DNA of 61,341 nt, from positions 1 through 61,341 of the forward strand of contig JBDKGS010000001.1 in assembly GCA_039798065.1 (NCBI GenBank), in the 5' to 3' direction. Made by a program: the position numbers and the translations under genes. Positions 3,152 to 46,096 of this stretch are shown piece by piece (within the stretch, counting starts at the first letter, position 1; every line of letters starts with the position of its first letter). Source of the DNA: Fibrobacterota bacterium. Its GTDB lineage: Bacteria; Fibrobacterota; Fibrobacteria; UBA5070. The notes beneath the pieces are model-generated. The model was not told where the DNA came from. It saw nothing but the letters and a program-made list of their open reading frames with translations, and did no database searches.

Positions 3152-3230
3152 GTAACCGCTCGGTGATCCCCTCTTACTCCGTCCCCGCTTGATTTTGAGG
3201 CTTCCGTAGTCCACTACTTCGGAGGTCGAT

Positions 3231-3751: not shown

Positions 3752-3787
3752 TCAGTATTTATCGAACTTTCGAGGTAAATTGTATCG

Positions 3788-13869: not shown

Positions 13870-14095
13870 GAGCACCTCGAAACAAAAAGAATTTCATAAG
13901 AATGATACCAAACTTACAATTAACAATCATGACTCAGCCATATCCGCGGACCATCAAAAATACCGATGTGCAAATTCAACGTCATGACCCTTGAAGCTCT
14001 ACTATACCATTTTACAAACATGAGCTATCCAGCACAAAATTCACGCGCGTTCTGCCTCAATTATCGAGACAAAATTGGATTTGCCCCCAAAGCGC

Positions 14096-14614: not shown

Positions 14615-14726
14615 TCGATTTCAGGCACAATGTGCCAAGTTAAGTCCTGAGCCGAAATCAGGGACAGGAGAAATTGTACAAGCATGCGTAATTGTGCTTT
14701 CTAGGAAATTGATCCTGACAGAACGG

Positions 14727-15398: not shown

Positions 15399-15433
15399 CG
15401 CAACAAGGCTTCGAGTCGCAGGCAACCTCACGG

Positions 15434-16009: not shown

Positions 16010-16109
16010 CGCATCTCCTATCAATCTTTCCAACAACAATTTCGTGCACAAATCGTTCCCCAATGCCACCGCAAGGAAAACGGCCTAGGGATTAGCGCCC
16101 AATCACCGT

Positions 16110-16442
16110 TCACGAAAACACATAAATCAAATCAAAAATCACAACATTCCAAGAGCCAAGCGCTAGTCCTTTCTTTATGTTATTGCGATGCATCTTCGAT
16201 TCACAATACGTATCAGAATATGACACAATACAAAAAGGGAAGACCCATGCATTAATACTCTTGAAGAACCGGACATCCCCAGTTGGGCACTTCTTGGAGT
16301 CAGAATATTCCGACATCATCACGCCATCCGAAACTTTACCCCACCCCACTGACTTATTGAGCCCGGGATCGACAAGCAGTGTCATGATCACGTTCACCAC
16401 AAGGTAGAGGCTGAGCCCAAGATAGACTGATTTTTTACTCAT
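16110..16442 (-). CDS. small membrane protein (110 aa)
   Basis: N-terminal TM segment VYLGLSLYLVVNVIMTLLV and C-terminal hydrophobic segment. AT-rich. No homology recognised. Confidence 0.45.
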   Translation of the reverse strand: MSKKSVYLGLSLYLVVNVIMTLLVDPGLNKSVGWGKVSDGVMMSEYSDSKKCPTGDVRFFKSINAWVFPFCIVSYSDTYCESKMHRNNIKKGLALGSWNVVIFDLIYVFS

Positions 16443-16603
16443 TTTGAGGCTGCCGTTTTGGGTGGATAAGTTATAGAGCCGAATAACAGAATCTCAGCCA
16501 TAAACCCTTCACCAGCTCCATCAGTCCTCTCCGCTGGAGTCAGCAAACTATATGCATTCAGAAACTGAAGTCCGCTTGGCAGCAACACTGGTGGAGCACT
16601 CGG

Positions 16604-17155
16604 TTACTGATAAAATACCTTGAATGTATTGCCTGCACTATCTTTTGCGACACCTTCTACCAAAGGATTATAGCACGTGTAATCCTTTGGATTGCCCGGC
16701 TTACAATTTGTGTAAACTATTGATTCTGCCATTAACGTCAACCCCGAGTCGCACATATACACTTCCTTGCTGTGTAATCCTTTATTGTATGAATCACCGT
16801 CACAATAGCCGCGGCCATAGACAAGCTCCCATTCATCACGCAAGGTGAAATTGAAGACGCTCATCGTATCTCGACTGAGATTGTCGCCTAAGCTTCTAAT
16901 CCAAATGCAAGAACGCTTCTTGCCGCTTGAAAACACCAAGTCATCAACCCCTTTCTCAGATGCTCCAACCTGACGATCCAGGTATAAGTATCGGGCCCCC
17001 TGGTATGTTTTTTTGGGTTCTCGCGGAACGAAAATCACTCTGGAACTACATCCCAGAATCGGAACGAAAGAAAATACACATATAATCAGCAGCAACGAAA
17101 ACGGCATCACTCTATTGAATTGGTAAACACGCCCTGAAAATGTGAGAATTCTCAT
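16604..17155 (-). CDS. lipoprotein, candidate cognate immunity protein of the RHS toxin tip
   Basis: Start ATG overlaps the RHS stop (ATGA 17152-17155). Hydrophobic segment plus lipobox FSLLLIICVFSFVPILGCSS. The position immediately 3' of a polymorphic toxin is typical of immunity genes. The true start may be the internal ATG at 17107. Confidence 0.6.
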   Translation of the reverse strand: MRILTFSGRVYQFNRVMPFSLLLIICVFSFVPILGCSSRVIFVPREPKKTYQGARYLYLDRQVGASEKGVDDLVFSSGKKRSCIWIRSLGDNLSRDTMSVFNFTLRDEWELVYGRGYCDGDSYNKGLHSKEVYMCDSGLTLMAESIVYTNCKPGNPKDYTCYNPLVEGVAKDSAGNTFKVFYQ

Positions 17156-20100
17156 TTTGCCCCAGGCGCCTTATTAATTGCAGAATTGTCACCATCAAGA
17201 TATTTAGCGAACCAGTCCTCGTCTTTTGCACTCCACCACCAACTGGGACGACTTGCTACTACACCTGCAGTAAGTAGGTTTGAGCAATTCATTCCAGCTT
17301 CTCCACAAGCTTGATGTTGCGGGCCAGGAATACCGTAAACCGGTACAAATACCCAGTCTCCAGCTCTCCTGCCATCTGAACCGGTTTGTAATCCAGACCA
17401 AATCAAACCAACCCCAAGTCCATATCCATTCGCAACCATATCACCTGGTGTATCATATAACCAATCCAACAAAGGCTGATCATCAAACGGATGGCCGCCG
17501 GTTCCTTTATAGCCCTTGGCCACTTCATAGCCAATATCATACGCCAAAGCCACAATCGACAAAATCGTTTTAGGCAAAAAATTCACAATTGAATTATATG
17601 TGCCTGTAACCTCTCTCGCGGCCTCATTAACATAGTGAAAATTATTCAACGCGTGTAAAATCTTGAAATCATTTCGGCTTGCGGCGATCCAAGCTTTACT
17701 GTACCGACTCATGTCCGCTTGAGAATTGCTGTATGCGCGCGACTTCGCAGCACTAAAGTCCATCCACATCCCTGTGGGGTCAATACCTTCTAAAGGACTA
17801 TTTCCCGTATAGGAGTAAGGCGTCCAAAACTGCTCCCCAGCGTCTCTTCCCGTGAAGCTTCCTCGTTCTGGCGAGTACCATCTGGCGTTGAAATACCAAT
17901 CGCCCATGGCAGCCTCGTAGACTTTTCCCTGGTAGAGTAGTTCCGTGGTCAGTTGGGTCCAGCTTTCCTCGATGTTCCCCCACGGATCCCAGATCCAACG
18001 ACCCAGCACAGCTCCAGTGTCAGAAAGCAGAGCCTGAGTGGTGCCTTGGTGGTCGACGAGCACGTAGCGCACTCGCGTTTTCCCAGAGGAATCCGTCGCC
18101 TCCGCCACGCGATTGAGGCCGCTGTAGACGTGCCAGTTCCAGCCGTGGTCCGATCCACTATCAGCAACGATGGACGAACCGTCGTAGACCCACTTGTGGG
18201 TCACGGTCCAGCTGGACGTGTCGCTTCCCTTGCCGATGGCCGATAGAATCCGGTTCCCGTCTTCGCCGTAGTCGAAGCGCAGCCAAGTGGTGTCCAAGTT
18301 CGCCAGCCGATTGATGATCCTCACCCTCTCCAGCTCGTCCCGTTTGTTGAAACGCCGCTCAACCACGCGCCAGGCCTTTGAAAGTGTTCCGGTGTCGGCA
18401 ACTTGGGCGAAGCTCGCTTCCACGGACAGGTTGCCCCGAGCGTCATGCCTGTAACTCGTCCAGCCCTTACGGGCCGTATAGCCGGTGGCCACGCGGTTGG
18501 CCACGTAGGTAAAGGTGTCGCTCGCGCCACGCCCCATGGGGTGGGACAGGCGGGTTCGATTTCCGTTGGGATCGAAGCCGGTTGATATTGCCTGTCCATC
18601 GGGGTAGCGGATGTTGTTGAGCTGGTAGAGGCGATCCACGTCGAAGCCCAAGGTATCCCCCAAATTTCGGCGCATCCCTGCCACATTCCCAGCGCCATCC
18701 CAGCTCATGCGTTGAAGATACAGCGTGTCCTTGGTCGTGGAGTTGTTCTTCTGCACAAGGCTCTGTGTCAGGTATAGGCGCTGAGCCTCGAAATTGTTCG
18801 TTTCCGTCAACCTCGCTCCCATTCCGTATCCCGCCACTAGGTCATTTTGACGGTAGCTGATGTCGTGCAGAACCGCGATTGAATCGTTTCCGTGAACCAC
18901 GGATTCGGATGACAGGCGATGGTAGAGATCGTAGGATGTCGACACATGGGCCATACCAGGCAAATCCTGTCGAACAACCCCTCCTCCAAGATCATATCGC
19001 CAGGATTGATTCACCGAATACAGCGACGGCATCGCGAGGCCTCGCGACAAGCGGCGCCCCATTACATCGTAAGTGTAAGCAGCAGTCACTCCTGTGCCTC
19101 GCGTGATCCCGAGCAACCGACCAAGATCGGCAACTGCACCGAAGTTGTCCCATGCGTAGGTGACATTTTCGCGAGCACTTGCGCCGTAGCTTTCCGCCAA
19201 CAAACGCGACAGGCCATCGTAGGTCATAACCTTGACTGTGAGCGACTCCGGATGCGTCACCATCTGCACGGTATCCGTAACAAGGCGAGAACCAAGATCG
19301 TAGCCCATCGCATGGCGTATATCGTCCGGATAGACATTCCACAGCAATCGATTGCGCTCATCGTAACGTCGCGTTTCAACCAGCCCCTTGGGGTCGGTCA
19401 GTTTAACCAAGTTCCCGAGATTGTCGAAGACTTGTCGCACCTTGATGGTACCGGTAGCCGCTGGCGCAGGAACACCCGCTGACGCGTCACCACCCAACCG
19501 CAATTGGAACGCTCCCGAATCGCGCTCGATCAGCGTGTCACGTCCAAAACCATCCCAATGGAAGGTGGTCTTGACACCCAATGGATCCTGTTCGACCAAG
19601 AGTCGGGCACTGTCGTTGTAGAAATAGCCGTTCTCCCAAGAAAGAGAGCGACTACTTGCTAGAGCTGGTTGCAGATAGACACGGCTTGTCGTCAGTCGAC
19701 CCGTACCATCGTAGTTGTGAAATTCTTCTCGGGCATCAGCATCTCTTTTCCACTGCAGCTTGTCGAAGATGTTGTAGGAGAAAAGAGTGGTGGTTTGTTT
19801 CGACGTATCTGTTGTAGACGGGTCGCTTCCCTTAGCTATCCGTTTTTCTGCGACCATGCGTCCTGTGCCATCAAAACGAGCTTCGATCGTCACTCCCGAT
19901 GGGTCGGTCTGCCGTACCGCGAGCGTCTTCTGGTTCGGGTAGTTGCTCGCGAAACCTTGAACCTTGCGCCAGGCGCTGGTCGGCTGTAGGCGATCGACGT
20001 ATCCGAATGACACCACACCGCCGTCGGGGTTAGTCACTGATACGGGTCGGCCCAAACGATCATATTGCCTCGTGGCAACTCGCCCACCTGGATCCTTCGT

Positions 20101-23100
20101 GGCGAGCACCCAGCCATGATCCACATCGAAGAAGCGACTGGTATCCAAGACGGATCCTGTCGGCGACACACCTGGGGTCTGTGCGCTCACATACAAGCGG
20201 CTCCGAGCTGGCAGCATCTGGAAAATGCTGTCATAAGTGGTCTCCTGGACGGAGACCGAATTTGGCCCAAGGTACCGACTTGTTCGGAAGGGAAGCAACG
20301 GACGGTTCTGGGCCTCGGCATAGGCTATATCCAGACTTGGCTGCCAAGCTCCGTTCAACCAAATCCGCTGACGGACTACGCGTGGCAAAGGAGTTGGCAA
20401 GCTCGCTCCCTTCCAATCCTGATATTCGGTCGAGTCGGCGACAAGCACCGAGTCGTTTGGATTAAAGGTTGTGGTTCCAGAAGCAACGCCACCCTTGCGC
20501 CAAACGCGCGAGCTTGTGCCCAAACCCAGCTGATACAGGCTGTCCAGGCGGAAATTTGGGTTTGGCTTGGCGTTCACTGCGACGACCTTCAGGATGCCGC
20601 CTGTCGCCGAATCCTTGACGATGCTCGTGTCGCGGGTGATGCTCCAAAACTCTCCGTTGCGGCGATGCTGCACACCATACCGGGTGTCGACTTCAGGACA
20701 AGACACCGTTACACTGATTCCCGTCGAAGCAATGACGGAATCCGTCTTCAGCTTGTTCGAGAGATCGGATGGGCACACGCGTTCGCGAATTACACCACCA
20801 TCATCATCGTACTCCCAGGTCGTGATTTTCGGATCGTATTTCGCGGACATTCCACGCGAATCGATTTGCACGATCTTGCGATCGCCATTGTACTGGTACT
20901 GCGTGCGTTTCATTCCAGGCGCCCCAGCCCCGTGGTACTCCGCCATCAACAGGAATCGACTGGTCCTGAATTCCAGACTGTCTAGCACCTTGTCGGTGTC
21001 GTGAATGGTTCCGTCGAGACGCTGGACCGTCGTGCGCCCCTGGTACCCGTGCTTCTTCATGTTCACGTTCTGCGATTCCAACATGGGTGCAAAGACGTAC
21101 CAGTCGGTTGTTTCCGATTGCCTCCATGCATCCCGTGGATTCACGACGTGATCCGGCTGCATCAACTGTGTGTGGATTGAAGTGCGTAAGGCCTGTGGCC
21201 GCCCCGCCGTCCATCCGTCATAGAAGTAATCTCGCTCCAAACGGAACTTCTGATCGTTTCTGTCTGGATACTCAACAACCGCCCGGACGAAACCGTCAAA
21301 GGTCGTGTTCCGCTCACCCGAATAGGCATAGGAAGTCCTGCTTCCGTTCGCATGGTCGATCTGGTACAAATCGCCATTTGAGTACGAGAAGGTCGTTGTG
21401 TCGATTTGAGTGGAATTCACACGCTTGGCTTCCCAGTTAACCACGGTGGTGGAATCGAACACGTTGCCGTTTTTCCCCGAGTAGGCGAGGTAGGGATGGC
21501 TTCCCATGCCACCCCAAACCGTATCTACAGCCCTTGCCAATTGTCCATTCTGGCCGAGTACGCCAGAAATCACATGATTTCCTGAAACAACTGACCCGCG
21601 GCCCGTTGCCCCTTCCCAAGCGGCGATCACGTGGTGCAAAGAATCGCGACGGATCGTAACGGAGTCGCCTGTAGGGTGACGAAACTTCGACGGTACAGCC
21701 CAATACGAATGGTAACCCACCTGATCGAACACCATGCCTTTGTCGGCACGACCTGCGCCGAAAACAATTTGAGTGCCTCCCGGATCCTTGACGAGGTAAT
21801 ACCCGGTGGAATCCATCGCACGACTGGATTTGATAGCATCATCGCTAGGATCTTGACCAAGATCCTCGACATCAGGCACACCTTGGGGCAAGCAGAAGTA
21901 CACCTTTCTTTGGTCCACATTCGACAAGCTCACGTAGCTGACCCATTTCCGTCCATCAACCGTTCGCGCGGAATCGTCGGATAGAATGAACCGGGACGCT
22001 CCTCCATCCGCTCCGACCAGATGCAAGTCAGGCATCGGATGCCGCGACTCGCTGGAATAGTCTACGACCGTATCAAATGTCGCGTAAGAGTTACCATCCT
22101 CATCCTTTGGACAAGCTGGCTGCCCTTCAGATCCACATGTCTGCACGATGGTCGTCTGACTCCACATTCTTTGGAATCGTCCTTGGGCCTTCTGCAATTC
22201 AGGATCAAGGTTTGTCCCAAGCATCCCCGTGTACCCGTTAACACCCAGTACCCATGGATTGAGAGTCACGAATCCTACATCAAACGTCTTGGCAGCTTCC
22301 GCCTGTTCGTAGATATACAGACGCATCAGTTGGATTGCGGTCGCAACAGCTACCCCGGCTACCCCGCCCGCCATTCCACCGCCCACGATGTTTGATGCGA
22401 TGGACTGACCTGCCATCGTTCCAACTTGCCAAGCCGCATCCTCGACGCTCTCCTGTCCCGTCCCGAGATTGTAAGCCATATCCGCCATGGTGAGATAGGG
22501 AACACCCGAAGTACTCAACAGGCTGTTCGCCCCGGCATTGATGTATTGCCCACCCATGTTTTGCGAAACCGACAGAATCGCTGAACCACACTTTGCCCAG
22601 TGGTCAGAACACTCCTTGATGGTCCCGTAATCCTTCGCAGCGCTGGTGAACATATAGATCGCAGCCCCCAAGGCTTGCTGGGCGGCCATGTTGTCGGCTT
22701 GAAGTTTTTTCAACCAGACCGTGTCACTTGCGGACATCACGAACGTTTTGCGCTTGGAGTCCATGATTTCCTTGCGATTGTTCATGTCGATCAACCAAGA
22801 GGAGTATTTCTTGTTGATCGCTTGTCTGATCGCATCCGATGCCGCCGCCTGAAACATGTTGACCGATACCGACTGGACGAAGCCCCATGTCGAGGGTAGA
22901 TCCGTCATCGATCCGTATTTCTGGATCCGTCTGGTCGCGAATCCGCCGATGTCCATTACATCATTTTGAACGATTCGCTCACTGAAGGTTGGCTTCTGTT
23001 TGGACGCATTGCTCGGATCAATGGCGTTGTAATCCATATCGTATTGGAACGAGAACAGCGGATCGCGCCAGTGGCTGTTCCAGGAGCGTGTGAGATTGAC

Positions 23101-35300: not shown

Positions 35301-38300
35301 ATGCTGTGGCGAAGGACAACGAGCCCATTCCGGATGCTGGACCGTCAGAGCTCTGATCATAAGCCTTTCCAAGCTTTGGTCATACTCCACTGGCTGTGGA
35401 TCTCGATATGTTCCCGTCGAGCCAATTTCGTTGCAGAATTGAAAATTATTCGTGTCAGCAGTAACGTCATATCTGCTTTTATTGTACGCAAACAACGCGC
35501 CTATCGGATCATCTTCATGATATCCTGAATACCCCGAATTCGTCACAGAAAACGGATCAGATGAAACATCATAATTAAAGCTATTTACTCCGCTACCAAA
35601 AAATGCTTTTGGAGAAAAACGATACACCATGCTTTCACGCTGGATCTCTATCATCTCCGAATCCAAGTCCGGCTGATAGCGTGGCGGTATCCCGACGCGC
35701 ATCGTGCGGTCAATACCGTTCGCATTTGGAGAAACGACATTCATCCCGCTTCGAACGCCCATCCCTGTGTTCCCGGCGTTAGCCAACATCCAGAAAGGAA
35801 TCTGCTTCTTCATGACTTGGCGCACGCGATCGTCATGCCTTGTTCGTCCCCAAGAGAGATACCAACCATTGGACTCATAATCACCCGAATAATTTTCAAA
35901 TCCGGCGATTGAATTGTAATACTTGGCCCAATAAATCTGATAATCCGTCGGAAAATACTGTCGAACGACTTGTTTACCGTATGGCCTTATATCGAAGGTC
36001 ACATCCCGAGGAGGGAAATACAGCAGGTTGCCCGCGAATTGAGCCCGCAGCTTGTAATCGCTGATCAGGTCAGCAACACGCAAACCATTTTCGGTCTTTC
36101 CTTGCACGGTCAGCGAACTCGATGCGACCTGCCGAGCCAACATGTCGCCAAAGCGAACAGTGTCTCGATCGATTTCAAACCAAGCACCGCCTTGCTTCCG
36201 CTCTAAGCCAACCACCAAGCGACCAGTGGAAGCACCTGCGAACGGGCTTGAAGTGGGATCAAGCCACAATCGTCCAGCCTGATCCTCGCCTGTCCAACTC
36301 CCTTCCCAAGAGCTGACTGTCTTTTGCCCGACAACCGCTAAAATGCTGGACGTATCGTTCGGACCGCGGATCACAAGCCGTGTTGTGTCCAGTCGTGGAA
36401 GTGCAACCTTGCACTGCAGCTGCAACGCACCACCCAAGATCCTGGCCATCGAAAAATCCACGTACGACGGTGACACTTTGAGCAAGCTCGAATTCCAACT
36501 CAACGGGCTTGCAACCACCGTGAAGGGCGATTCCGCGATCCACTGCCCATCAAGATTTGCGGATGTCGCGCGCATCACGTACGATCCAGTTGGCAGCGCT
36601 TTGCCGTCGCTTCCATAACCGCCAAATTTTACCGACGAATCCATCGGCGAGCCTTGCCACACCCGTTGGGAAACAATCCCCAACCCAGTGGTCCAAACAG
36701 ATAGCGTCGAGCTCAGACCTGATGCCCCGCTCAGTAGCCAGCGCAAAGTGTCGTTCGCCGTGTCGCTGTCCGAGCGGTCAAGGATTCCTGAAAGCGGCGA
36801 GAGCAACGGCAACGAGATGGAACGATTCGCGAAGCCCGAGCGGTCAAGCGTGAACGTTGCACTGGCCGTTTGGACCAGCTCGCCTTTTCCCGTCCAAAGC
36901 ACCAAGGTGTAGAGCGTGTCCCGAAGGTTACGAGGATCGAACGTCGCGAGATTCTCGTCGAGTCCCAATCGGAGCGCGGTTCCGACCGAACCAGGAATGG
37001 ACGACAGGTCCTGAGTGATCCTGGCAGCACCTGGTAACGCTTTTGCCTCCATCACGGACAACAGCTGAGTCGAAGGGAGCGATTTCAAAAACGCCCAATT
37101 TGTCGAGGCTGGAACGGCTAGGCTACCAGGATGCAGGGAAAGTCGATAGACCGCAGTCCCTGTATCCTTCGGGCTGGGATCGGGCGCAATGCCACGAACA
37201 ATGATGGACCCACCTTTGGCCTTCAAGACCGTTCCGTTCGAGGGGTAACTGATCCTCGGTCCTACTGCGCCGACGAACATGACCGCGGAAGCTGTGGAGC
37301 TGAGACCTGATTCGGAAACGACCACGCTCCAGAACCAGGTTCCCGCCGTGCGCGCTTTGCTGGTCACTGGAATATCCGCCGTGCCGACGCCTTTGGTATC
37401 CAACCGAACCACCACGGAGTTCGCTTTGACGGAATCCGGTCCCGTGATCTTGATAGTGTCGTAGGCCAACGCCGTTCCCGAAACGTCCACATGAACGAAT
37501 GTCGATATCGGAGCCGACGCAGCTACTTGAATGGGAGTCACACTCGCCCTCACGGATGGCCCTGACCACCGGACGCGAACGGCTCCAGTCACACCCGTCA
37601 CAAATGCCGAAGAAGAATCCGATGCGTTCCCGGCTCCGTCCACAAGGGTCCATTTCGCGTCGTAGTCGCCTTCCGGCAACATGCTCCCATCGGACAATTG
37701 GCCGTTGAAGGTCCATTTGTGATCCGCGCGGCTTGAGCGTAGGAAGCTGGATGTGTACACCTGACCATTCCGAGCGAAGCGGACAACCAAAGTCACAGGG
37801 CGAGTAGAGTCTTTGTTGTCGATCGCACCGGTCAGATTCGCGCTCCAAGGAGTCGTCGGGCTGACCGTATTCGTGGACGAACTCGTGCTCCAGATCCCAG
37901 CTCCAACGGGGGCGATCGCGTCCAGCTCGAAGCCAGTGCTGTCAAGAACTGTCGATGGTCCACGAACGACCTGGATGAAGGCCTTCCACATTCCTGTCGA
38001 GTCCGGCGTGGTACCGTTGGAAATCTTCCCCGACCACTGGAGGGACAGCGTGCCGGATGGCAGAACCGATCCGGTCTGGAGGGTGAACGTGTCACCTTTG
38101 GGACGCTTGAGCCAGACTCTCCAGGCTGCGGATCCCGGAGCGAGGATACCCGCCGTTATCGATGCGCCAATCAATTTGGGCGAAAACAAGGCAGGATCGA
38201 CACGGAACGATCCGATTTCAGGATGGCCAGGCTGATGCAGCGAGCCCAAAAAACGAATCCCTTCACCAAGCGTTGCAGCGGCCGTCGCAAGCGTTCCGCC

Positions 38301-39299
38301 CAGCAACAGGTATTGCGAATTCCCCGGCGTTCCAGCGGACATCACATCGGCGATCGACGAGGCCAGTCGCTGTCGAACTCCTGGCGACAATCGCCAAAGC
38401 TCGCCCGAAGCTGGCGTCCATAGCAAGACCGAGCCTGAATGTAAACTGTCGTCTGGGAGCAAACGGCCGACCTGGGGAGCGGTGTCAACCACACCGGTTT
38501 GCCAGAAGATCCTCTTGTCCGCGGCAAGCAGGACCCATTGCCGATTCCCCGACGCCTTCCAAAAGCCCGCTCCGCTCCACTGCACTCCCGTGGGAAGATT
38601 CGGAAGCAATGTATCGGTTGCCAAGTTGGTTCCACTCACCCATACCTGGCTGCCATTCCACGAAAGCACGCGATAACCGCTTCCATTGGGCCAAACCTTG
38701 ACACCCAGCATCGTGGCGGAATTCGACGAACTTTGATTCTGCACAAGACGCTGCGCGCCCGTGCACATCATCCAGCCACGTTTTCCGGATGCCAGGTAGA
38801 CCAGAGTGTCCCCAGCCCACTCCACCGTGGAAGGGCTGCTTGCGAACCACGCCTGATGACGACTTGAATCTCGGAGATTGGAGCCATTCCATGCGCGCAG
38901 AAGGATGTAACCGGCTCCATTCACATCCTTGACCGGCATAGCAATCGAGTCGCTGATCCCTCCCTTGATCACCATAGCACCACCGATCGCGATCAGGTTC
39001 GGAGGTACAACTGTCGGTGCATTGGTGATACCCACGACAGCAGGCAAGCCTCCACCCTTGGGTAACGCTAGAACCCGTCCATTTGGGGAAAGAAACACCA
39101 GCTGAGAACCTGGAATGAGCCCGTCAAGAATGCCAAGGCTTGAGAAAGCCCAGCCGAGCACAGGAAGAAGTAGAGCGAGTAGAGCAAGGCGAGTTTTGTT
39201 TAGCACGGTGGCCGCAAATTTACCCTTGGACACGCTGTGCCCCAAGGAAATTTCTTCGCAAGTCATTGATATGCAACATTTTGCACACTTCAAGCCCAT
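23307..39299 (-). CDS. giant secreted multidomain protein (5,330 aa): Ig-like/FlgD-Ig-like, PKD-like and CBM-like modules
   Basis: Single uninterrupted 15,993-nt ORF. N-terminal h-region LALLALLLPVLGWAFS. Recurrent Ig-like module signatures (GDYDAKWTLVDGAGN, GSYVMRATSANLDG, GLYRALVEAIQVDG, GTYQVQLQG). Two PKD-like segments (SFDPERRQLSYQWW; SVDPLGHPLQFHWID). Three beta-sandwich CBM3/cohesin-like signatures (LRLRAFY, LRIRAEYW, VNLVYWI). The start could be 39299 or 39266. Confidence 0.88.
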   Translation of the reverse strand: MGLKCAKCCISMTCEEISLGHSVSKGKFAATVLNKTRLALLALLLPVLGWAFSSLGILDGLIPGSQLVFLSPNGRVLALPKGGGLPAVVGITNAPTVVPPNLIAIGGAMVIKGGISDSIAMPVKDVNGAGYILLRAWNGSNLRDSSRHQAWFASSPSTVEWAGDTLVYLASGKRGWMMCTGAQRLVQNQSSSNSATMLGVKVWPNGSGYRVLSWNGSQVWVSGTNLATDTLLPNLPTGVQWSGAGFWKASGNRQWVLLAADKRIFWQTGVVDTAPQVGRLLPDDSLHSGSVLLWTPASGELWRLSPGVRQRLASSIADVMSAGTPGNSQYLLLGGTLATAAATLGEGIRFLGSLHQPGHPEIGSFRVDPALFSPKLIGASITAGILAPGSAAWRVWLKRPKGDTFTLQTGSVLPSGTLSLQWSGKISNGTTPDSTGMWKAFIQVVRGPSTVLDSTGFELDAIAPVGAGIWSTSSSTNTVSPTTPWSANLTGAIDNKDSTRPVTLVVRFARNGQVYTSSFLRSSRADHKWTFNGQLSDGSMLPEGDYDAKWTLVDGAGNASDSSSAFVTGVTGAVRVRWSGPSVRASVTPIQVAASAPISTFVHVDVSGTALAYDTIKITGPDSVKANSVVVRLDTKGVGTADIPVTSKARTAGTWFWSVVVSESGLSSTASAVMFVGAVGPRISYPSNGTVLKAKGGSIIVRGIAPDPSPKDTGTAVYRLSLHPGSLAVPASTNWAFLKSLPSTQLLSVMEAKALPGAARITQDLSSIPGSVGTALRLGLDENLATFDPRNLRDTLYTLVLWTGKGELVQTASATFTLDRSGFANRSISLPLLSPLSGILDRSDSDTANDTLRWLLSGASGLSSTLSVWTTGLGIVSQRVWQGSPMDSSVKFGGYGSDGKALPTGSYVMRATSANLDGQWIAESPFTVVASPLSWNSSLLKVSPSYVDFSMARILGGALQLQCKVALPRLDTTRLVIRGPNDTSSILAVVGQKTVSSWEGSWTGEDQAGRLWLDPTSSPFAGASTGRLVVGLERKQGGAWFEIDRDTVRFGDMLARQVASSSLTVQGKTENGLRVADLISDYKLRAQFAGNLLYFPPRDVTFDIRPYGKQVVRQYFPTDYQIYWAKYYNSIAGFENYSGDYESNGWYLSWGRTRHDDRVRQVMKKQIPFWMLANAGNTGMGVRSGMNVVSPNANGIDRTMRVGIPPRYQPDLDSEMIEIQRESMVYRFSPKAFFGSGVNSFNYDVSSDPFSVTNSGYSGYHEDDPIGALFAYNKSRYDVTADTNNFQFCNEIGSTGTYRDPQPVEYDQSLERLMIRALTVQHPEWARCPSPQHDSLPSPWTLRCLCYPDGRRALRWGTWDPRIDSTFAFAYQACEDSTLAAVYINMKNAGIAIPQSPVTLQDYFSNIVGALNGSAWSAPDNISASFHLTRPRTKGVIDDAWWLSAPTDWSQSYYVYGPGYRKIYHDSVGVPLYSLARRFDEVLTQDGSFHNRIQSIHDSEIVRVGFDRIIPADSTKDSTSNSDDFKYRLRPGQGPWFMRKHPSFTGCCSDDWGYKYSIGNNYHHYTKMDDPWGMKVQTAYTVPPRLNWMNPWFYVGDTGTTVVRKMLYANDSLSWTDEFPWGDVNGERTNNSLATLGGYKEGQVGYWFRPALDSEHRVFRANAYGEILSEVDYVKDYSHHIHLDPSNPGVYSNHNLRFEPRLVVSPRTRGVVWDTVGIDWPLPGATADHIDASSMQDSGFGDTTNWGRTWIQVHRTLQPDSLWIPRVTNFGATAADSIRLSLWSLFPRLPGEPLTGGVTGRMDSLYNFVRLKSLAWGVSPLDARGMLIPDQTRLRWNLNLSSDTTFTWLDRWKNATQNLTVRKPVLTAGYVLQPDTLQAWSSQQDPILKDRSGWIYLRDSMNPSPMTGFDPVHSNISLVPTSAADSVVQAAPCYRPWVTSAFVRVHDSGSSLCKDSLGLNPNLLLSGSQARWNVEIYYPDGQTPNLDLGQGSTSNLQSMTLRLSDNRSSQRWVRLQGGLADTIQNGGKTFSLVRWRVFGSNNGQAIDLDLPVSQTDSVQIKVGIHKAKTGDNTWTPSDVPDLAWWNVTGQQGASQFLVQGVYANATDSLATWTKVPFVLGQPRVSNASTKVADAYGRATLNMPPDSTNSGTPIVLNTLSGQDLASLPLAGAVPMGPVIKMSPSGTRFSTPATLQYRMTLRELLSQMNRPASKDSLVTTRAKWSEAWTWAISELAIWEISDGGQFEAAPTSLTFAGDTSGSLVSLDNLQVVLTGLISHFSYAAVLHKDPSKNLAPRWISAIRSGTGLAMSLDAQQAISLGAKPQLIRVRLSATPSADTGKFALGEMVLTLHQGRIDTVVASLPSAWSQILSRTSGYLFARFDGGSSWSSIVVRDSSSKVSFGPVTVAPSFAHSNCSDTVRLSFNSNLSGIARAKVVNSSGTVVGNLLGSVVAGLDTLKWSVCNGATPAPKGLYRALVEAIQVDGTSVADSSLNLAVWGIDTLVPSLGAIQVPDPAMVPREVAGVSISATDTGWPSTTTWSAKIRRVFDERGVGADSVWRALATPIAASDSVRAVWDARNGLAWAPRGTYQVQLQGLAGSFKISRTALFGVDTETSAISLSLSSTATPYQGDRVPAALTGSNLASWKLRILKDSNQIGELTGVGSRNLSLQLLLRTDTLPSGRYKACAIGMGLLGSNRQVCQDLVIRPLVPRLASMTARPSDTLWSGWPEGTFQRHRNRVNTWVLTGQADRSGRLIRQISRNGLVVRQDTLPVLFGSFAWTWDGRVSGKLLPEGLVQIKVWADNATSSPDTSYSWSIQIHRVPRAFVWAGTVADTLAATLVNSLTANGVLTSRGDASAASEYLLDNPKGTLVMLDTAISSKLWSGRSAGGLIPWTLSGGNAVFAGAPALSAWRDSLGAVRKASDTDYARMSIYGGPTAGTSAAAQRSFARGIRYAGLRVDSLDDFSRRIWSHDTGSIMSWSLRLRWFDSIGVDVESGLLKHRVDSLHQLNQRGRDSVYLDSNLAGSLNYYPAQDAGLRKGQILELPQIAGIADASNAGQLIWTQLLVPDFGISRSDVRVAAAPVGARTSAQWRPIPGDSLKLSLSIRVRDGGMDTLPDSAVLDLKKIPGLWNDTVLVVKHLKTGTIALPQLPVKLPVNFPYGQASIAVSIRPFQLGTLAEQYLGNNSIQGQFLVGDIAAPGLAWKDRLDGQFAGLPLRLAPVAAGKPFFVTASAWSRHHQSRWSYAWELRSSQGNRLDGDSTTSTQSDSTRWVISGNIDPDATDGSMQSAMLRAHDAFNNTDSIQVRLRVDAVKPVLGAFTVGGRQGGLDTANGNLVTFRLPSNAKAVDTASIAISDNQQFGRVILVTSAGDSVSWLDTVKLGSLNLKRPVPVTKITPYDTVTSENVMSLVVRDLAGNDTTVRFQVISEPPPLPQIFHVRIPSNGGTLQYPTILDSFSSSLSRSRVDSMVRAGQGFVLRPIPKEDTENAIYGWTNGDSGIQVRQSHRGVPMDFVFAPQTNGQISLMSVTMDGNVVNTPPAAFQAYGDLLSQHPTQRLIEITPSKAHHRLVFRASDAYESDSLVLMLDDSLADLQVVDSSQDHNGLGADWGEVYMRRNVYQPSGISLPQTWDYWLIQRRNSMAPGERDNHIYRLLVDADGDSATGDTTNSIPRGFKGADVTLEWTNLTTADDGSAAQVTMYRWNDTLKHWIQSASGHEGLDLLAGYGFHQNEPDNPNTDSLGRGDQRLPSGVVAPASAGVTEIGVRSGLTNSLHPIRWAIVPDGFAGDTVRDSSGGMLKFEPRDYKPVNVDGDASEWWPNNTPINIEVRSKTDTLGDSLRVLIGLKNSSTRTIRGVNLVYWIMSDSIPTASLSEMPYEWRRMRVASTVVDSSKIVDTLRRLATWRISISCDSCMLPGGSYFSPVAFLKIKRNSPKASSALDWSNSFDSSIANPHFTAYDASGVILFGSEPPPRALRLPVARITPSGVLWTTVGQPLVLRADSSFDPERRQLSYQWWHSRTGTNNTSTIDTFVASRPGVYEVSLKVFDGSDLQRSAWATDSIYVQDTLGAMGARPVLADAVYLFDDQWDSKWQSWDIQDSAKTVDSLFGLDGTRHAINPARGTKLLSVPFDSASDYTYLRATCDSSYWNANGTPWCPDEIDLSKFTNLEFKIAMDAGLKDPIRVWLDRVMQNNGQGNGAREEDFAYVNSYLKDMSDPSHWQTVSIPLKEIYTEPQLRQGWLQLKFMTNTGRLTSAMRYRPRVLLDDIRLVKYKTVDSQIVTTRKTGLQVMANTIQYGDPSQLSMVVRLLNQGSLPLQLDSLRLRAFYQSKQFQTIGDTTWVGPDTVALDWNRGMPTDSTIDGPQLKMAALSHDSLVPPGLHSNHFGEIRWVGNTSGPDVGLKLQSTASASFWFAVENYSGRLAHSGLPANRIPMTSFDGVRSLAWSWPNLDSIDQFAPHIILDHLMSNGDWVRAWGLAPNEDSRTVSYWTPEDLVDPVMAIDSIHQIRAHITVNGNTTPGARLFASADASVDPLGHPLQFHWIDSIGRVIRVGSIDSFVVPDTGKIVLRLRAFDILDPTRVGLDSVTVWSTSSAKAIDSLQILTGSRGTWIPGSAWGSTSTAFPSWKASVDLVARDGSCPVRLLPIAGDSILSLPFSSVTLDGVRFDAPTAALDRNRFTHLEFWVASSREWPTRNHRDVPVRIWLTHQVQPGTGDNNHSSEEDFNLIQAYLPSSHLLRRWQKVSIPLDELYQTSLSANSDMTKLFLKFMLDNTASSEVDSARRADLYLTGIRFAKYDPGTRVTTRRIGAIAVGSAYPIPNLGSTRMDFRLLNVAPQPLFSDSLRIRAEYWNSSSVGSSFSNNIGAMGTDESVSSNWFVPQDTAWSFALSTDIVGRNANRGHQLTWASSVPLAAGKGWEAIWSLGFSDSVFSNGQSRQHFAPDASPSSALFDGIVIDYKQAGGWKRLWGTEAWESPDTVTYWAREGIRVPADTAMPSAAVVNLSGACVDSTGLIGTTTNTSIAAGDVAALPSTGRDPLLITQSVTDAGRKGVQVIQSKPDWNIKHTFIFDTAWVHHSVVDVEVYVDPAQMTGTAWAGTLMASTFDNQTWSTLELTPLSGTALDSAVGKWITLRFQYNPASYVLGRPFDLQFLANGHGNGTSSFKFDIGSVSVEGASGSGGDSTVVDTNYTAPSNSISMDSLSRFISCNQCAIVTDGSRKATAFAPVGGGTALAFTVPVDSSLTIARTLSFDLKSEFVLQGWEQAWFFVDDSPYRYNWDQYLANIPNSVSTGWTTINIPFSGSLYGLGTTAKFMLSVNANAPNGTRMLVDNVRWTP

Positions 39300-39386
39300 T
39301 CATTTCAGCGTCCTCAGAATTGAGACGAGCAACAGCTTTTGCTTCGGTCCGCTCAGAACAGACAATCGGACCACCTTCAAATTCGG

Positions 39387-40214
39387 TCATCCCCATCCCT
39401 CCTCCAAAAAGGTGTAACGGGCGGAGTCGTAGATCGGGGCGTCACCGAGCGTCGGCAACCCAACCTCTTCGGCTGGCAACCGGATCCGAACAGCGCTGGG
39501 AACGAACACAAAGTCCACTCGGCCCGCACTCGCACACCCCAACAGCTGTTGTCGTGGAAAACGGTCGCCGCAGGGAAAGGCCCCGCGCCCCTCGGGGTAG
39601 CCAAAGACGGGAATCCGCCAGACCTCGCCATCGCCGGCCTGGTCCGAAAACTCCTCGTGCAGGTACTTCGCTATCAGATGCCTGAGAACGCAGTAGACGC
39701 CGTGCCAGCAGCCAAGCGATGGGAGCCCATCATCCAGCACAGGACTTTGATAGATACCTCGGCAGCTTCGCTGGAAGTTCGCCAATGCTTGTGACGGCTG
39801 CCCTTGCACAAGATGACCAAGCGTGTTCGTGTCACAGCCCCAGTTCATTAGGGCTGCAACACCAGCAAGGGTCAACGACAACTCCTGGATCGAAGCAGAA
39901 GACGCAGCCAGCCGCCACGCCGCCGAATCGCACTCTAGGATGGATCGCACAGCCAAGGCTCGCCTGGCCGACAAGTTGTAACAGGCCTGCTCCGAGCTCG
40001 CGTCGTCGGCGTGCCCAAAGACGACCAAGCGAGCTCCAGACAGGGACGGCGAATGCCCGATCACCTGCGCGATGCTTTTGGCAAGCACACCATCTCGATC
40101 CAGACACGGCATGTGCCCACCCCGAACGAAGTGCCGACTGCCAAGGCTTACCGCAGCAAGCGACGCCAACTTCTTCTTCGACTTCGGGAAGATCAATAAC
40201 ACCTCTGCGCGCAC
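39387..40214 (-). CDS. OmpA-like (peptidoglycan-associating) domain protein
   Basis: OmpA C-terminal-like core LVVFGHADDASSEQACYNLSARRALAVRSIL (pattern GHxD..N..LS..RA.AV). A following segment resembles a PG_binding_1-type helix bundle (ALANFQRSC). No obvious signal peptide, so the start is uncertain. Confidence 0.6.
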   Translation of the reverse strand: MRAEVLLIFPKSKKKLASLAAVSLGSRHFVRGGHMPCLDRDGVLAKSIAQVIGHSPSLSGARLVVFGHADDASSEQACYNLSARRALAVRSILECDSAAWRLAASSASIQELSLTLAGVAALMNWGCDTNTLGHLVQGQPSQALANFQRSCRGIYQSPVLDDGLPSLGCWHGVYCVLRHLIAKYLHEEFSDQAGDGEVWRIPVFGYPEGRGAFPCGDRFPRQQLLGCASAGRVDFVFVPSAVRIRLPAEEVGLPTLGDAPIYDSARYTFLEEGWG

Positions 40215-40344
40215 GGAAGTTCGCTGTAGATCCGGAAATCATTCACCCGACCAGCTTCATCAGAGGCAGGCATCATTGCCCCTCCGCTCGACAATGATGG
40301 CGAGTACGAAGCCGCCTTTTCGCATCACGATCACTTCCGCTCCC

Positions 40345-41757
40345 TTATTTCCTGGGACGAGACGGCGATTCATCCTGACTCAAATTCAAAGGAAATGTCA
40401 CCACGGTAGACTCACCATCAAATGGACCGAAATGAATGTTCCTGGCCCCATGCATGAGTGCATTATCAAGCTGAATGCTGCCGGTTTCGGACGATACGAC
40501 CCGGACCGCGGAAACATCACCTGTCGGTGCGATAGTCAGCTGAAGCTTGATCCTGCCGCCCAGTCCAGTGTTCTGTTTGGCCAACTCCAAGAAGATCGAT
40601 CGTAGATCATCCAGGCTTCCACGTATGACTTCCTGAATCGACTCCATTGAACGCTTTGGCGGTGGTTTGATGTTCAGCAGCGGCACATCCTGTTCCACTC
40701 CTTGCATACTTGTCTTCGAGCCAGAAACCAGAGACACCCATCTCCCGTCAAACTCGTAGACCTCTTCTTGTGTCCTAGCCTGACCATGCGCCTTGGGAGC
40801 TGGAAATTTGACGGTGACACCGTTCTTTCGCTTGTTCATGGTAATGACAGGCTCGATGTCACATTCGGGAATCGCGATCATTCGCACGACTCCTGTGTCA
40901 TTGAACGCAATCAGCCGCAAGCCGCGATACGGGCAAGCACTGCCTCCAAGCGCGCCAGCGTTATCGTTCAACACGACGATCTGTTCAGCAGCCCCGGTCA
41001 ACCCCGTGAAATTGGAATTCACGTCAACTCCCCAAAGCTCACGGCTCGAGTCTGCCCATATAACCTTGCCCTGAACCAAAATTGCCGTCGCTTGGATGGA
41101 ATCTTTCTCGAAGTTTGTCTTGCGAAATTGGAGTGGCCCTGCGAGAGTCGCAACACCCACTGGATCCAAGTCTCCCGTGGCCTCCGAAACTTCTCCACTG
41201 ATCAGTGTTGCACGCATTGGCGAAACAAGACGCTGAGAATCAACAAGGACAGCTTTGACAACCGTGAGGCCGGCAACAGTGAACGGAGCACTGTAAATGG
41301 GCGAATTGATGCTTGGTTGAGATCCGTCGATGGTGTAGAAGATCTTGGCTCCAGGCCTTGATTCCATGACCACGGCACCAACGCCTTGCTTGTCTACCAG
41401 AGCATTGATCTTCGGCGCAGCGAATTCCGCTTCACCAGCCTTGGAAACTGAAAGCGTATCCATTTTCCCATAGCCGCGGAATCCATCCGATGGAGCAGGA
41501 AGGACCATCGACCGAACCAACTGAGCAGCATTTTCACGATCTTCTTTCGCCCCCTCTTTCGTGGCGGCCAGCTTTGCAGGTCGTGACGCCTGTGACGCTG
41601 CTTGAACTTGTGCCGTGGCGAAAAGAAAGGCGAGTACGGAAAAGCAACACGCGTTGGTAAACACAGAGATCTCCTTGTGAATCGCTCCGGGTTTACGGTA
41701 GGCCGAAGTACTCGGCGACGAACTCTTCACTTGAACCAGCTTGCTCCAAGATTTCAT
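40345..41757 (-). CDS. secreted protein with chitobiase/Fn3-associated-like domain and TonB/AgmX-PglI-type C-terminal domain
   Basis: ATG at 41757 preceded by GGGAGG. Signal peptide CCFSVLAFLFATAQVQA. AKIFYTIDGSQPSINSPIYSAPFTV (CHB_HEX_C-like). C-terminus IQEVIRGSLDDLRSIF..GGRIKLQLTIAPTGDVSAVRVVSSE..FGPFDGESTVVTFPLNL matches the TonB-C/AgmX-PglI pattern. Confidence 0.6.
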   Translation of the reverse strand: MKSWSKLVQVKSSSPSTSAYRKPGAIHKEISVFTNACCFSVLAFLFATAQVQAASQASRPAKLAATKEGAKEDRENAAQLVRSMVLPAPSDGFRGYGKMDTLSVSKAGEAEFAAPKINALVDKQGVGAVVMESRPGAKIFYTIDGSQPSINSPIYSAPFTVAGLTVVKAVLVDSQRLVSPMRATLISGEVSEATGDLDPVGVATLAGPLQFRKTNFEKDSIQATAILVQGKVIWADSSRELWGVDVNSNFTGLTGAAEQIVVLNDNAGALGGSACPYRGLRLIAFNDTGVVRMIAIPECDIEPVITMNKRKNGVTVKFPAPKAHGQARTQEEVYEFDGRWVSLVSGSKTSMQGVEQDVPLLNIKPPPKRSMESIQEVIRGSLDDLRSIFLELAKQNTGLGGRIKLQLTIAPTGDVSAVRVVSSETGSIQLDNALMHGARNIHFGPFDGESTVVTFPLNLSQDESPSRPRK

Positions 41758-41788
41758 TGGCGCCTCCCTGCCGTAACTGCGTACGAAA

Positions 41789-43453
41789 TCAGAAACGTCC
41801 TTCAATAACCAGCTGATGTCGCAGATACACACCAGCCCCCATGACAAACCTGACGAAGTCGGGATCGATGGAGATCTCGGATTTGTTGGATTCAGACGAG
41901 CTTCCGTCGGACGATGAGCTGCTGGAGCTCGATGATTCCTTGGACGTGAAACTGGTGAGCATGTTGTAACCGAACATCCCCTTGTATCCGATGGACACGT
42001 ACCTGCCAAGATCCACGGTCACCGCAGCACCCAATCCGCCGCCTGCCGCGATCGATGTCGGCGCATCAAAGCTGGGCGTTGTGGTCGTCCACACCCCACC
42101 TTCTGTTGCATCCTTGAGCATTGCCGAACGACCTCCGTTGCCGGAGTAGTATAGTGCACTTTTGAAGTCACTTTCCTTGCCGACCACGACCATATCCGCG
42201 CCGATCTGGAGCAACGGGCCGATGGAGAACCGCTCTGGAACCACGTACCATGTGAACCGTCCTTCGAGATCGAAATTCATCCAGTTGAAGTTGCCCCAGT
42301 TGCTGATCCCAAGATCGGCTCCCACACCAAATCCGGTTCCCTTCTCCCGCCAGCCACCGGAAAACGCCAAGCCAGCCAAGCCCCAAAAGTTCTTCGCACG
42401 ATAGTATGTGTTACCTGTCACTTTCTTCTGTGTGTACCCGGGAGCGAGACTCACGTACCAGTAGCTCATCCGTCCAGTTTCCCGGGGAAGTTCACGCAAC
42501 GCCTGCCCCGAGTCCACTGACGTTTCCCCTTCCACGATATGTGCGACGGAGACCTTTTCACGAACCTCAGTAAGCATGATCCGCCCCTTGGTTTGCTTCG
42601 ACACAGTCAGCACCTCACCGGTCTCCGGATCCCGAATCTCCTTGCCCTTGCTCGCGGCCTCGAACACATCACCGACGTTCAACCCGACATTCTTACCGCC
42701 GCGGATCCAGACCGTCTTGCCTTCCTTGCGGATGATCACCAACGACACACCTTGCTCGTCGGCCGGAAACAACTCCCGAAGGGACGCCCGCAAGTCTTTG
42801 ATCGCCAAGTCCATCGCCTTGGAGTAAGCGGCATTTGAACTTGCATCGGAGGTTGCCGCCCCACTGATCTGGTCACTGGCACCGACAACGGCACCTGTCT
42901 TGACGTCGATGAGCTTGTAGGTCAACGCTACCTGTGCGGAATAGATCGTGTTGCAGCCGGACTTGTCGCAGACGCTCTTGTTGGACACGGATGCATCGTA
43001 CGTGCCTGTCATAACATTGGTGGCTCCAGCCATCATTCCCAACTCCACTCCGTCCTGGGTCGCCCCCGAGTTTTGGAACTGCTGTTCCGAGGTAACGTGC
43101 TCCAGGGACGAGCGATCCAAAATCGTCCAACGACCGATCGAGGCCACAGCGGCTTCGACTTTGTCGGTCACGTATCTTCCCCACCCCGACGAGAGGGCTG
43201 CCGCTGAGGACCCACCTGGTTTGAAACCAACCACTGCGATTTTTGGCTTTTCCTTCTGCTTCGGCGCCACTGTGACAGCTATGGTCGGCTTTGTTGGAGC
43301 TGGATCAGCCGGGACAACAGGCGCTTCCGGCACCGAAACCTGTGCTTTGGTGCCCACCGGTACCCGCAGGTCGAATTCAGGCAAACTATCGGAAGCACTT
43401 GCGCTCCAGGTCATAATCGCGACCAGGACTGTTACTCGTGCACGAATGGACAT
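41789..43453 (-). CDS. CsgG/LpoB-like N-terminal domain fused to a predicted C-terminal beta-barrel (554 aa)
   Basis: ATG at 43453; signal peptide MSIRARVTVLVAIMTWSASA. PKIAVVGFKPGG..WGRYVTDKVEAAVASIGRWTILDRSSLEHVTSEQQFQNSG..GMMAGATNVMTGT follows the CsgG-family pattern. The C-terminal half has a G/Y/W-rich alternating-strand pattern ending ..HQLVIEGRF. Confidence 0.6.
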   Translation of the reverse strand: MSIRARVTVLVAIMTWSASASDSLPEFDLRVPVGTKAQVSVPEAPVVPADPAPTKPTIAVTVAPKQKEKPKIAVVGFKPGGSSAAALSSGWGRYVTDKVEAAVASIGRWTILDRSSLEHVTSEQQFQNSGATQDGVELGMMAGATNVMTGTYDASVSNKSVCDKSGCNTIYSAQVALTYKLIDVKTGAVVGASDQISGAATSDASSNAAYSKAMDLAIKDLRASLRELFPADEQGVSLVIIRKEGKTVWIRGGKNVGLNVGDVFEAASKGKEIRDPETGEVLTVSKQTKGRIMLTEVREKVSVAHIVEGETSVDSGQALRELPRETGRMSYWYVSLAPGYTQKKVTGNTYYRAKNFWGLAGLAFSGGWREKGTGFGVGADLGISNWGNFNWMNFDLEGRFTWYVVPERFSIGPLLQIGADMVVVGKESDFKSALYYSGNGGRSAMLKDATEGGVWTTTTPSFDAPTSIAAGGGLGAAVTVDLGRYVSIGYKGMFGYNMLTSFTSKESSSSSSSSSDGSSSESNKSEISIDPDFVRFVMGAGVYLRHQLVIEGRF

Positions 43454-46058: not shown

Positions 46059-46096
46059 TTCAATTCCTCCGGTTACGACAGCCGCTCGTGCAGCTG

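Follow-up and report, generated by a model that had tools for sequence, protein, structure and literature searches.

Sec-exported RHS polymorphic toxins, catalogued as the Sec/type II secretion system (T2SS) type, are a recognised class (PMC3482391, Table 1, Zhang et al. 2012), and WapA is its studied monoderm example (PMC12704120). The subject of this analysis is a minus-strand locus on contig JBDKGS010000001.1 (assembly GCA_039798065.1, positions 1 to 61,341; this 61,341-nucleotide (nt) stretch is called the window throughout) that encodes a 2,051-amino acid (aa) RHS/YD-repeat polymorphic toxin of this trafficking class and, overlapping its start, a giant secreted protein of 5,330 aa. Conservation of this gene pair in three independent metagenomic lineages indicates that the pairing is under selection, and the core of the locus consists of three genes (giant, RHS toxin and immunity), not of the six that an earlier note on this DNA had combined into one delivery locus. 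In the best explanation of the locus, to which we give about an even chance of being correct, a plasmid-like element carries a polymorphic RHS toxin that is exported by Sec and served by a giant surface protein dedicated to it. No account of an RHS toxin with a conserved giant partner was found in a literature search, so that the statement in the earlier note that no described system has this gene set stands for the giant/RHS pair but not for Sec-dependent RHS toxins as such, which are a catalogued class (PMC3482391, Table 1).

In comparison to WapA of Bacillus subtilis and Streptococcus suis, the RHS protein of the window is alike in its signal peptide, YD/RHS shell, core boundary and putatively variable C-terminal region with a composition break, and it resembles WapA-class toxins also in the candidate immunity gene immediately downstream and in having no dedicated secretion-system domain. 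WapA-type toxins are, however, single proteins with their own wall-binding region in monoderm hosts, whereas here a separate 5,330-aa secreted protein is encoded beside the toxin in a probable diderm. The RHS N-terminus also differs from that of WapA by a variable, helical, glycine-rich region that was assigned to no family.

The giant gene (23307-39299, minus strand) and the RHS gene (17152-23307, minus strand, 2,051 aa from ATG) have one A in common, which belongs both to the TGA stop of the giant (23309-23307) and to the ATG of the RHS gene (23307-23305), giving TGATG at 23305-23309. A Shine-Dalgarno (SD)-like motif, GAGGTGG (23316-23322, minus strand), lies within the last codons of the giant gene, nine nt ahead of the RHS ATG. 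Relatives of this arrangement were scarce: a word-indexed search of 5.8 billion clustered proteins returned two fragments matching the RHS N-terminus and two matching the last 1,500 aa of the giant, and a metagenome scan with the RHS N-terminal alignment added three further loci. After duplicates were collapsed (L009 is the same as L014, and L010 is part of L012), three independent metagenomic lineages remained besides the window. L012 spans giant aa 2003-5330 at 60% identity and RHS aa 1-1056 at 60.6%, L013 holds the last 130 aa of the giant (68%) and RHS aa 1-1171 (60%), and the most distant lineage, L009, holds giant aa 3543-5330 at 48% and the N-terminal ~860 aa of the RHS protein at 26% identity. 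All of these contigs break inside the giant gene and its 5' end is visible in none.

The earlier note had asked whether the adjacency was conserved, and the order of giant and RHS gene recurs in L012, L013 and L009 with the giant stop overlapping the RHS start, as TGATG in each case except L009, where the overlap is GTGA. The RHS protein keeps its own signal peptide in all lineages. Alignment of the junction showed a stretch, GTTGACAACNTGAGGTGGANNCCGTGA, common to the window, L012, L013 and L009 with synonymous positions included; approximately 27 nt, with the SD-like motif among them, are nearly invariant in the four lineages and 37 nt are identical in the three closer ones. Recurrence of the overlap in three independent relatives shows that the arrangement is not due to chance alone, and judging from the conserved junction the RHS gene appears to be translationally coupled to the giant gene. 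A one-nt overlap of two open reading frames (ORFs) could also be joined by a frameshift, and the pair might in that case be a single fusion protein made by frameshift or readthrough at TGATG, or a split pseudogene. This is hardly credible, as a canonical signal peptide is conserved at the RHS start in every lineage and an SD-like motif lies ahead of it, and the type of overlap varies (TGATG versus GTGA) while the two-ORF structure is kept; the fusion was rejected on the conserved signal peptide and the SD-like motif at the junction.

The RHS ORF of the relatives ends at or near the contig end (L012 at ~13,150, L013 at ~3,880 and L009 at ~10,400), with the terminal residues PPSQAI in L012 and L010, GRASCRERV in L013 and a stop inside the shell in L009. 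The assemblies probably broke here at repeats or insertions, and as a result toxin and immunity genes are visible in none of the relatives.

Within the window, profile searches placed the protein firmly in the RHS polymorphic toxin family, with YD/RHS repeats (RHS_repeat PF05593, E=1.7e-20; also YD_repeat_2x and TIGR01643) and the RHS core domain, which in this family ends in DPxG(L/W) before the toxin; the nearest sequence in the PDB is the RHS toxin Tse5 (8cp6, E=1.5e-11). Signal peptides were assessed from hydropathy only, and by this measure the Sec-type signals proposed in the earlier note are present in both large proteins: the RHS protein has a clean signal peptide at aa 1-22 that is conserved in its relatives, and the giant has a hydrophobic segment at aa 38-58. 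Right behind the RHS signal peptide, aa 47-81 weakly match the first shell segment DUF6531 (E=0.048), and between this segment and the beta-rich shell, which extends from approximately aa 345 to the core domain, lies a variable region predicted to be alpha-helical (22273..23025, minus strand; aa ~95-345). This region contains a glycine-rich hydrophobic stretch at aa ~295-335 (hydrophobic segment, aa 307-325), and conservation within the N-terminus is lowest here (identity 0.44-0.52 to close relatives and 0.07-0.20 to L009), while aa 1-100 are the most conserved (0.72-0.78 and 0.42-0.50, respectively). A profile search of the RHS N-terminus against the PDB gave no match, and an AF2 model of aa 23-620 from a three-sequence alignment reached a predicted local distance difference test (pLDDT) score of 35 and was used for secondary structure and topology only. 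The N-terminal ~430 aa that the earlier note had singled out are therefore probably the shell start plus a variable helical module and not a separate leader domain, and the helical region is a candidate docking or membrane-interacting element.

The RHS-associated core domain (17767..17988, minus strand; aa 1774-1847; TIGR03696, 48.2 bits against a cutoff of 32.5) is followed by the motif IDPTGMW. DPxGxW-type core boundaries are autoproteolytic cleavage sites in Rhs and TcC proteins, and by analogy IDPTGMW would be expected to act as the autoproteolytic boundary ahead of the toxin. The C-terminal toxin domain (17155..17766, minus strand; aa 1848-2051, 204 aa) gave no Pfam match at E<=5, no meaningful PDB match and no match in the plasmid collection. 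At the core boundary (~17,770) the GC content drops from ~0.60 to ~0.45, and it stays low through the toxin domain and the adjoining 183-aa ORF (16604-17155, minus strand), whose start overlaps the RHS stop as ATGA at 17152-17155. A GC break at this position is the classic footprint of a swapped or recombined toxin/immunity cassette, and the toxin and immunity genes are read as such a cassette on this account. The 183-aa product, a putative immunity protein, carries a lipoprotein-type signal (FVPILGC followed by SS, with a hydrophobic segment at aa 16-34) and has no family match in Pfam or NCBIfam and no PDB or plasmid match. The lipoprotein type of the immunity candidate suggests a periplasmic or cell-envelope site of toxin action in diderm target cells. 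Orphan copies of the RHS gene, its C-terminal toxin or the immunity gene were found nowhere else in the window.

Downstream of the immunity gene, at 13800-16450 on the minus strand, four small ORFs occupy a region in which GC is low but mixed (0.41-0.50, rising to 0.55 in one island): 16110-16442 encodes a membrane protein, followed by 15434-16069, by 14727-15482 with a lipoprotein-like signal, and by 14096-14614. None has a family match and no remnant of an RHS core or C-terminal toxin was found there; they might be further immunity or orphan genes.

The giant protein yielded near- or sub-threshold Pfam and NCBIfam matches only (FlgD_ig, Big, PKD, CBM30 and SGBP_B_XBD), of which the FlgD_ig-like segment is single and internal (aa 490-549). 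By composition it is beta-rich and helix-poor, as is typical for multidomain surface proteins built largely of beta structure; no internal repeats were detectable by BLAST, and a PDB sequence search returned nothing beyond a weak PKD match. Hydropathy analysis showed one hydrophobic stretch, at aa 38-58, behind an unusually long N-region, and translation may possibly start further downstream than annotated given the length of this region. Candidate starts are two ATG codons, at 39299 and 39266, and a GTG close to aa 32, the last of which would yield a canonical signal peptide. One gene caller also reported, as seen on contig L001, a 56-aa ORF at 39220-39390 (minus strand) that overlaps the stop of the preceding OmpA-like gene (ATGA) and the giant start; it is probably spurious.

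Surface adhesins with CBM, PKD and Ig-like domains are common in Fibrobacterota-like polymer degraders. The weak CBM30, SGBP_B_XBD, PKD and Ig-like signatures of the giant can thus be taken to mean that giant and RHS gene are co-transcribed yet independent, with the giant serving as a substrate- or glycan-binding adhesin, the RHS protein exported alone via Sec and T2SS, vesicles or lysis, and the overlap reflecting co-expression. The RHS protein does possess a complete signal peptide of its own, and partner-free, Sec-only RHS toxins are already catalogued (PMC3482391). However, across four lineages adjacency and a near-invariant overlapping junction are kept even where identity falls to 48% and 26%, which exceeds what would be expected for unrelated functions, and the giant is present in every RHS relative with visible upstream sequence (L011 and L010 are too short to tell). 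Independent function is for these reasons rather unlikely in our estimation, and a giant dedicated to the RHS toxin is preferred.

The earlier note had read by eye that neither large protein carries a standard delivery signature, and profile searches agree: no Pfam or NCBIfam model for PAAR, VgrG, LXG/WXG, two-partner secretion (TPS), RTX, SpvB/TcdB or the type IX secretion system (T9SS) C-terminal domain (CTD) matched the giant or the RHS protein, and no Tc-B-type domain was detected in either. The T9SS sorting domain, whether type A (TIGR04183/PF18962) or type B, had no match in the giant when all pieces were searched with Pfam, and aa 1601-5330 as well as the last 400 aa with NCBIfam. Genes for a type VI secretion system (T6SS), Tc toxins, TpsB or an ABC exporter were likewise absent from the window, as previously noted for T6SS, TpsB and ABC exporters, and from ~10 kb past each end, where the flanks were read on the 119,603-bp JGI metagenome contig 3300043426 Ga0451745_0000036 (the window corresponds to its positions ~31,932-93,272). 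This is the scope of all statements on flanking genes below.

T6SS Rhs effectors such as RhsA, Tse5 and Rhs1 are alike in possessing a cocoon, an autoproteolysis motif and a toxin/immunity cassette, with Tse5 as the closest solved sequence, and some of them also carry N-terminal hydrophobic helices. Unlike these effectors, the RHS protein of the window has no PAAR or prePAAR N-terminus, and no VgrG, Eag chaperone or other T6SS gene occurs in the window or its flanks. Its Sec signal peptide is, moreover, incompatible with cytoplasmic loading onto a T6SS spike.

In the Tc toxins of Photorhabdus and Yersinia a large partner gene likewise lies upstream of the cocoon gene, and the cocoon needs a separate delivery or targeting subunit. 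The large gene followed by an RHS cocoon gene resembles tcA followed by tcB and tcC, and the RHS shell with a C-terminal toxin follows the same principle, so the pair could be regarded as a Tc-like analogue in which the giant would take the part of the A component and inject through a pore that it forms, and the RHS protein would be a fused BC cocoon directed at a eukaryotic or bacterial target. TcA is largely helical with a hydrophobic channel tip, however, while the giant is beta-rich and helix-poor, has no hydrophobic segment besides its signal peptide and gave no PDB sequence match to TcA. SpvB, TcdB_toxin_mid and TcA-type domains are also absent from the two proteins, both of which carry Sec signals, unlike Tc components, and the adjoining immunity-like gene points to bacterial targets. 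A Tc-like mechanism is accordingly very improbable, and it was rejected on the missing Tc domains, the missing hydrophobic channel segment of the giant and the Sec signals on both proteins.

Among very large surface proteins, CdiA of the CdiB/CdiA contact-dependent inhibition (CDI) systems is likewise tied to contact-dependent toxin delivery, and the giant adhesins SprB/SprF and LapA/LapE likewise have accessory outer-membrane proteins encoded nearby. The giant of the window differs from all of these in having no TPS domain, FHA (filamentous haemagglutinin) repeats, RTX/type I secretion signal or T9SS CTD, and neither a haemagglutinin match in the proteins nor a TpsB (Omp85-type) gene was found in the window or its flanks. 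It differs further from CdiA in that the toxin is part of a separate RHS protein and not the C-terminus of the giant itself.

In the explanation that we prefer, giant and RHS protein would both cross the inner membrane by Sec. The YD-repeat shell, starting right behind the RHS signal peptide, would enclose the ~200-aa C-terminal toxin, to be released at the DPxGxW core boundary. The giant would stay on, or extend from, the surface of the producing cell; as a partner dedicated to carrying the RHS cocoon or binding its targets, it would present the cocoon to nearby cells, and the fast-evolving helical, glycine-rich N-terminal region of the RHS protein may be the docking or membrane-interacting element. 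On contact the toxin would reach the envelope of the target, and the lipoprotein would protect sibling cells. The conserved, apparently coupled pair without a standard targeting domain came through the refuting conditions that the earlier note had set and supports its suggestion that the giant may be the RHS partner; that the two proteins interact physically is something we infer, as we do the surface display, the target and the toxin activity. The more specific proposal, that the pair constitutes a previously undescribed two-component form of RHS delivery in diderm, FCB-group-like (Fibrobacteres, Chlorobi and Bacteroidetes) bacteria with the giant docking the cocoon via the helical N-terminal region, is tentative and on the doubtful side.

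Several points weigh against this explanation. Its support is the arrangement of genes, and an overlap may serve co-expression and nothing more. At 40-codon resolution, synonymous-site identity at the junction was 0.50-0.57 against a mean of 0.42 (standard deviation 0.10), and this mild increase means that the nucleotide constraint is local, at ~30-37 nt; such local constraint is what a coupling or ribosome-binding element would give. The C-terminus of the giant shows no conservation peak, its identity being fairly uniform, which also agrees with independent functions of the two proteins. The pairing is known from four lineages, all of them metagenomic, and as the 5' end of the giant is missing from the relatives, the envelope genes could be conserved upstream of it. 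The view of the helical region as an insertion is drawn from the DUF6531 match (E=0.048) and secondary structure in a model with a pLDDT of 35, and the role of the immunity protein is assumed from the position of its gene only. The diderm envelope of the host is itself presumed from a neighbouring Fib_succ_major-domain protein and weak matches to Chitinispirillaceae and Fibrobacterota, and the model leaves unexplained how a protein of 5,330 or 2,051 aa would cross the outer membrane.

For this last step the earlier note had turned to the genes upstream of the giant, which encode a CsgG-domain protein (41789-43453, 554 aa, from ATG at 43453), an AgmX/PglI-type TonB-like protein (40345-41757, 470 aa) and an OmpA-like protein (39387-40214, 275 aa, GTG start), all on the minus strand. 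These were supposed to form an outer-membrane export or anchoring machine for the pair. The six minus-strand ORFs, the gaps of 31, 130 and 87 nt down the run and the two overlaps that follow (TGATG and ATGA) were all found at the positions given earlier, and the domains called by eye (CsgG, the AgmX/PglI-TonB C-terminus, OmpA, RHS repeats and RHS core) were borne out by profile searches. Co-direction with gaps of 31-130 nt, and an intergenic scan that showed no excess of terminators over shuffled sequence, are compatible with a six-gene unit, as is the same gene order on contig L001, though that sequence is identical. A promoter scan of the gaps gave no excess over shuffled sequence either. 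However, ParA and ParB-like genes directly upstream extend the same co-directional run, so that short gaps alone define no operon here.

The 554-aa protein matches CsgG (PF03783) over aa 62-206, corresponding to profile positions 2-158 of 210, and scores 41.9 bits where the cutoff is 20.8. Its AF2 model (pLDDT 81.9, predicted template modelling (pTM) score 0.70) had FlgT as the best Foldseek match in the PDB (3w1e, E=3.6e-11, 288 columns), with a weaker match to the CsgG pre-pore (4uv2, E~3e-4), and its C-terminal domain matched small eight-stranded barrels, namely TtoA (3dzm), Ail, NspA, the transmembrane domain of OmpA, and OmpX. The protein thus shares the CsgG Pfam domain with the curli channel and its best structural match with FlgT of the Vibrio flagellar H-ring, but it differs from both in its C-terminal eight-stranded OmpA/OmpX-like barrel, in the lack of a lipobox cysteine and in the absence of flagellar or curli genes (csgA/B/E/F) nearby. 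From the model it looks like a FlgT/CsgG-fold periplasmic module on a small barrel, an anchor or scaffold rather than a wide pore.

The C-terminal domain of the 470-aa protein is of the AgmX/PglI type (NF033768, 51.6 bits, cutoff 40). By hydropathy the protein also has an N-terminal hydrophobic anchor or signal, and it contains an Ig-like domain that is CHB_HEX_C/Fn3-associated; TonB_C and TIGR01352 fell below cutoff, a PDB TonB match was weak (E=0.015), and the GltG equivalog model gave 27 bits against a cutoff of 650. Neither a proton motive force motor (ExbBD, TolQR or AglRQS) nor other Glt genes were found in the window or the flanks. The 275-aa protein matches OmpA (PF00691) partially, at 27.2 bits, exactly the cutoff (profile positions 18-65 of 98), and shows no hydrophobic segment and no clear signal peptide by hydropathy.

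An exhaustive HMMER search of 1.84 billion representatives returned three full-length orthologues of the CsgG fusion (48, 39 and 34% identity), together with a few more distant barrel-bearing relatives and more than 1,000 generic CsgG-domain matches; the word-indexed search found only the protein itself. In five contexts of the fusion (L019-L023) the neighbouring genes were unrelated and many were housekeeping (a purE-like gene, MgtC, NamZ and a sulfatase-modifying enzyme), and tblastn with the TonB-like, OmpA-like, giant and RHS proteins of the window against these contexts found none of them. A scan of GTDB genomes with the fusion alignment gave weak CsgG-domain matches in metagenome-assembled genomes (MAGs) of Chitinispirillaceae, Fibrobacterota and Moduliflexus and no orthologous locus.

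In myxobacterial gliding, which involves the display of a surface adhesin, AgmX/PglI-domain proteins link the layers of the envelope, and FlgT- and CsgG-fold proteins form rings, both of which could be aligned with an export role for the upstream genes. Survey of the neighbourhoods does not sustain this role, however, as the relatives of the CsgG fusion (48, 39, 34, 31 and 32% identity) lie among unrelated genes and co-occur with a giant or RHS gene in none of the five contexts. The eight-stranded, anchor-like barrel would also be too narrow to let a folded or very long substrate through, and the OmpA-like protein lacks a clear signal peptide. We therefore regard a six-gene delivery locus as quite unlikely; it is most likely that the plasmid-like element carries the CsgG/FlgT-barrel, TonB-like and OmpA-like genes as envelope genes separate from the pair.

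The fusion of a FlgT/CsgG fold to a small barrel represents a small, previously unnamed family that occurs as a stand-alone gene (L020-L023) in genomes with a GC content of 33% to 70%. All of its members end in an aromatic residue, a feature typical of outer-membrane barrels.

The 119.6-kb contig that contains the window looks like a large plasmid-like or extrachromosomal/mobile element. ParA (45351-46349, minus strand) and a weak ParB_N gene (44497-45381, minus strand) lie directly upstream of the CsgG-like gene; the left flank carries ORC/Cdc6-like, TerB, BrxC/D and DEAD-helicase genes, and the right flank a weak Phage_CRI-type Rep and the Fib_succ_major-domain protein. A Dam methylase (1355-2176) and an IS66 element (about 2990-5407) are also present. 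No tRNA was found on the contig, and identical contig segments occur in at least four other metagenome samples. Judging from the Fib_succ_major neighbour and the weak CsgG-domain matches to MAGs of Chitinispirillaceae and Fibrobacterota, the host may belong to the FCB group. Searches of viral and plasmid collections with the CsgG fusion, RHS N-terminus, toxin and immunity protein gave no relatives, and a PHROG search with ten neighbouring ORFs gave no match; a phage origin is not supported by these results.

Other features of the window include a cobalamin riboswitch (RF00174, 7270-7491, plus strand, 95.6 bits, E=1.4e-22) directly upstream of nrdD (to 9797), which together with nrdG (9794-10390) encodes an anaerobic ribonucleotide reductase system. 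A DNase II homologue (PF03265, 10945-12204, plus strand, 419 aa, E=1.7e-18) belongs to a family that is mainly eukaryotic and unusual in bacteria, and it adjoins a PolB-exonuclease-like gene (12841-13683). Two adjacent large ORFs on the plus strand (49214-51583 and 51606-54029; 789 and 807 aa) have no Pfam or PHROG match, and neither do eight more ORFs between 46.9 and 61.3 kb.

To our knowledge the catalogued 'T2SS-type' RHS class has no known delivery partner, and how Sec-exported RHS proteins leave Gram-negative-type bacteria and gain access to their targets is an open question. If the pairing described here reflects only co-expression, the locus would be an ordinary Sec-type RHS toxin/immunity cassette beside a large adhesin on a mobile element. 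The conserved and apparently coupled giant gene nevertheless offers a specific candidate, open to testing, for the delivery partner still missing from the picture of Sec-type RHS toxins in diderms, in a lineage that lies outside the Proteobacteria-centred model systems. If this is true, the giant would functionally replace PAAR/VgrG of the T6SS, TcA of the Tc toxins or the wall anchor of WapA. The recurring giant/RHS pairing may thus possibly represent a new way of presenting an RHS toxin, which would add a new delivery route for RHS cocoons and would attach a function to one gene out of the large number of giant genes in environmental genomes that defy annotation.

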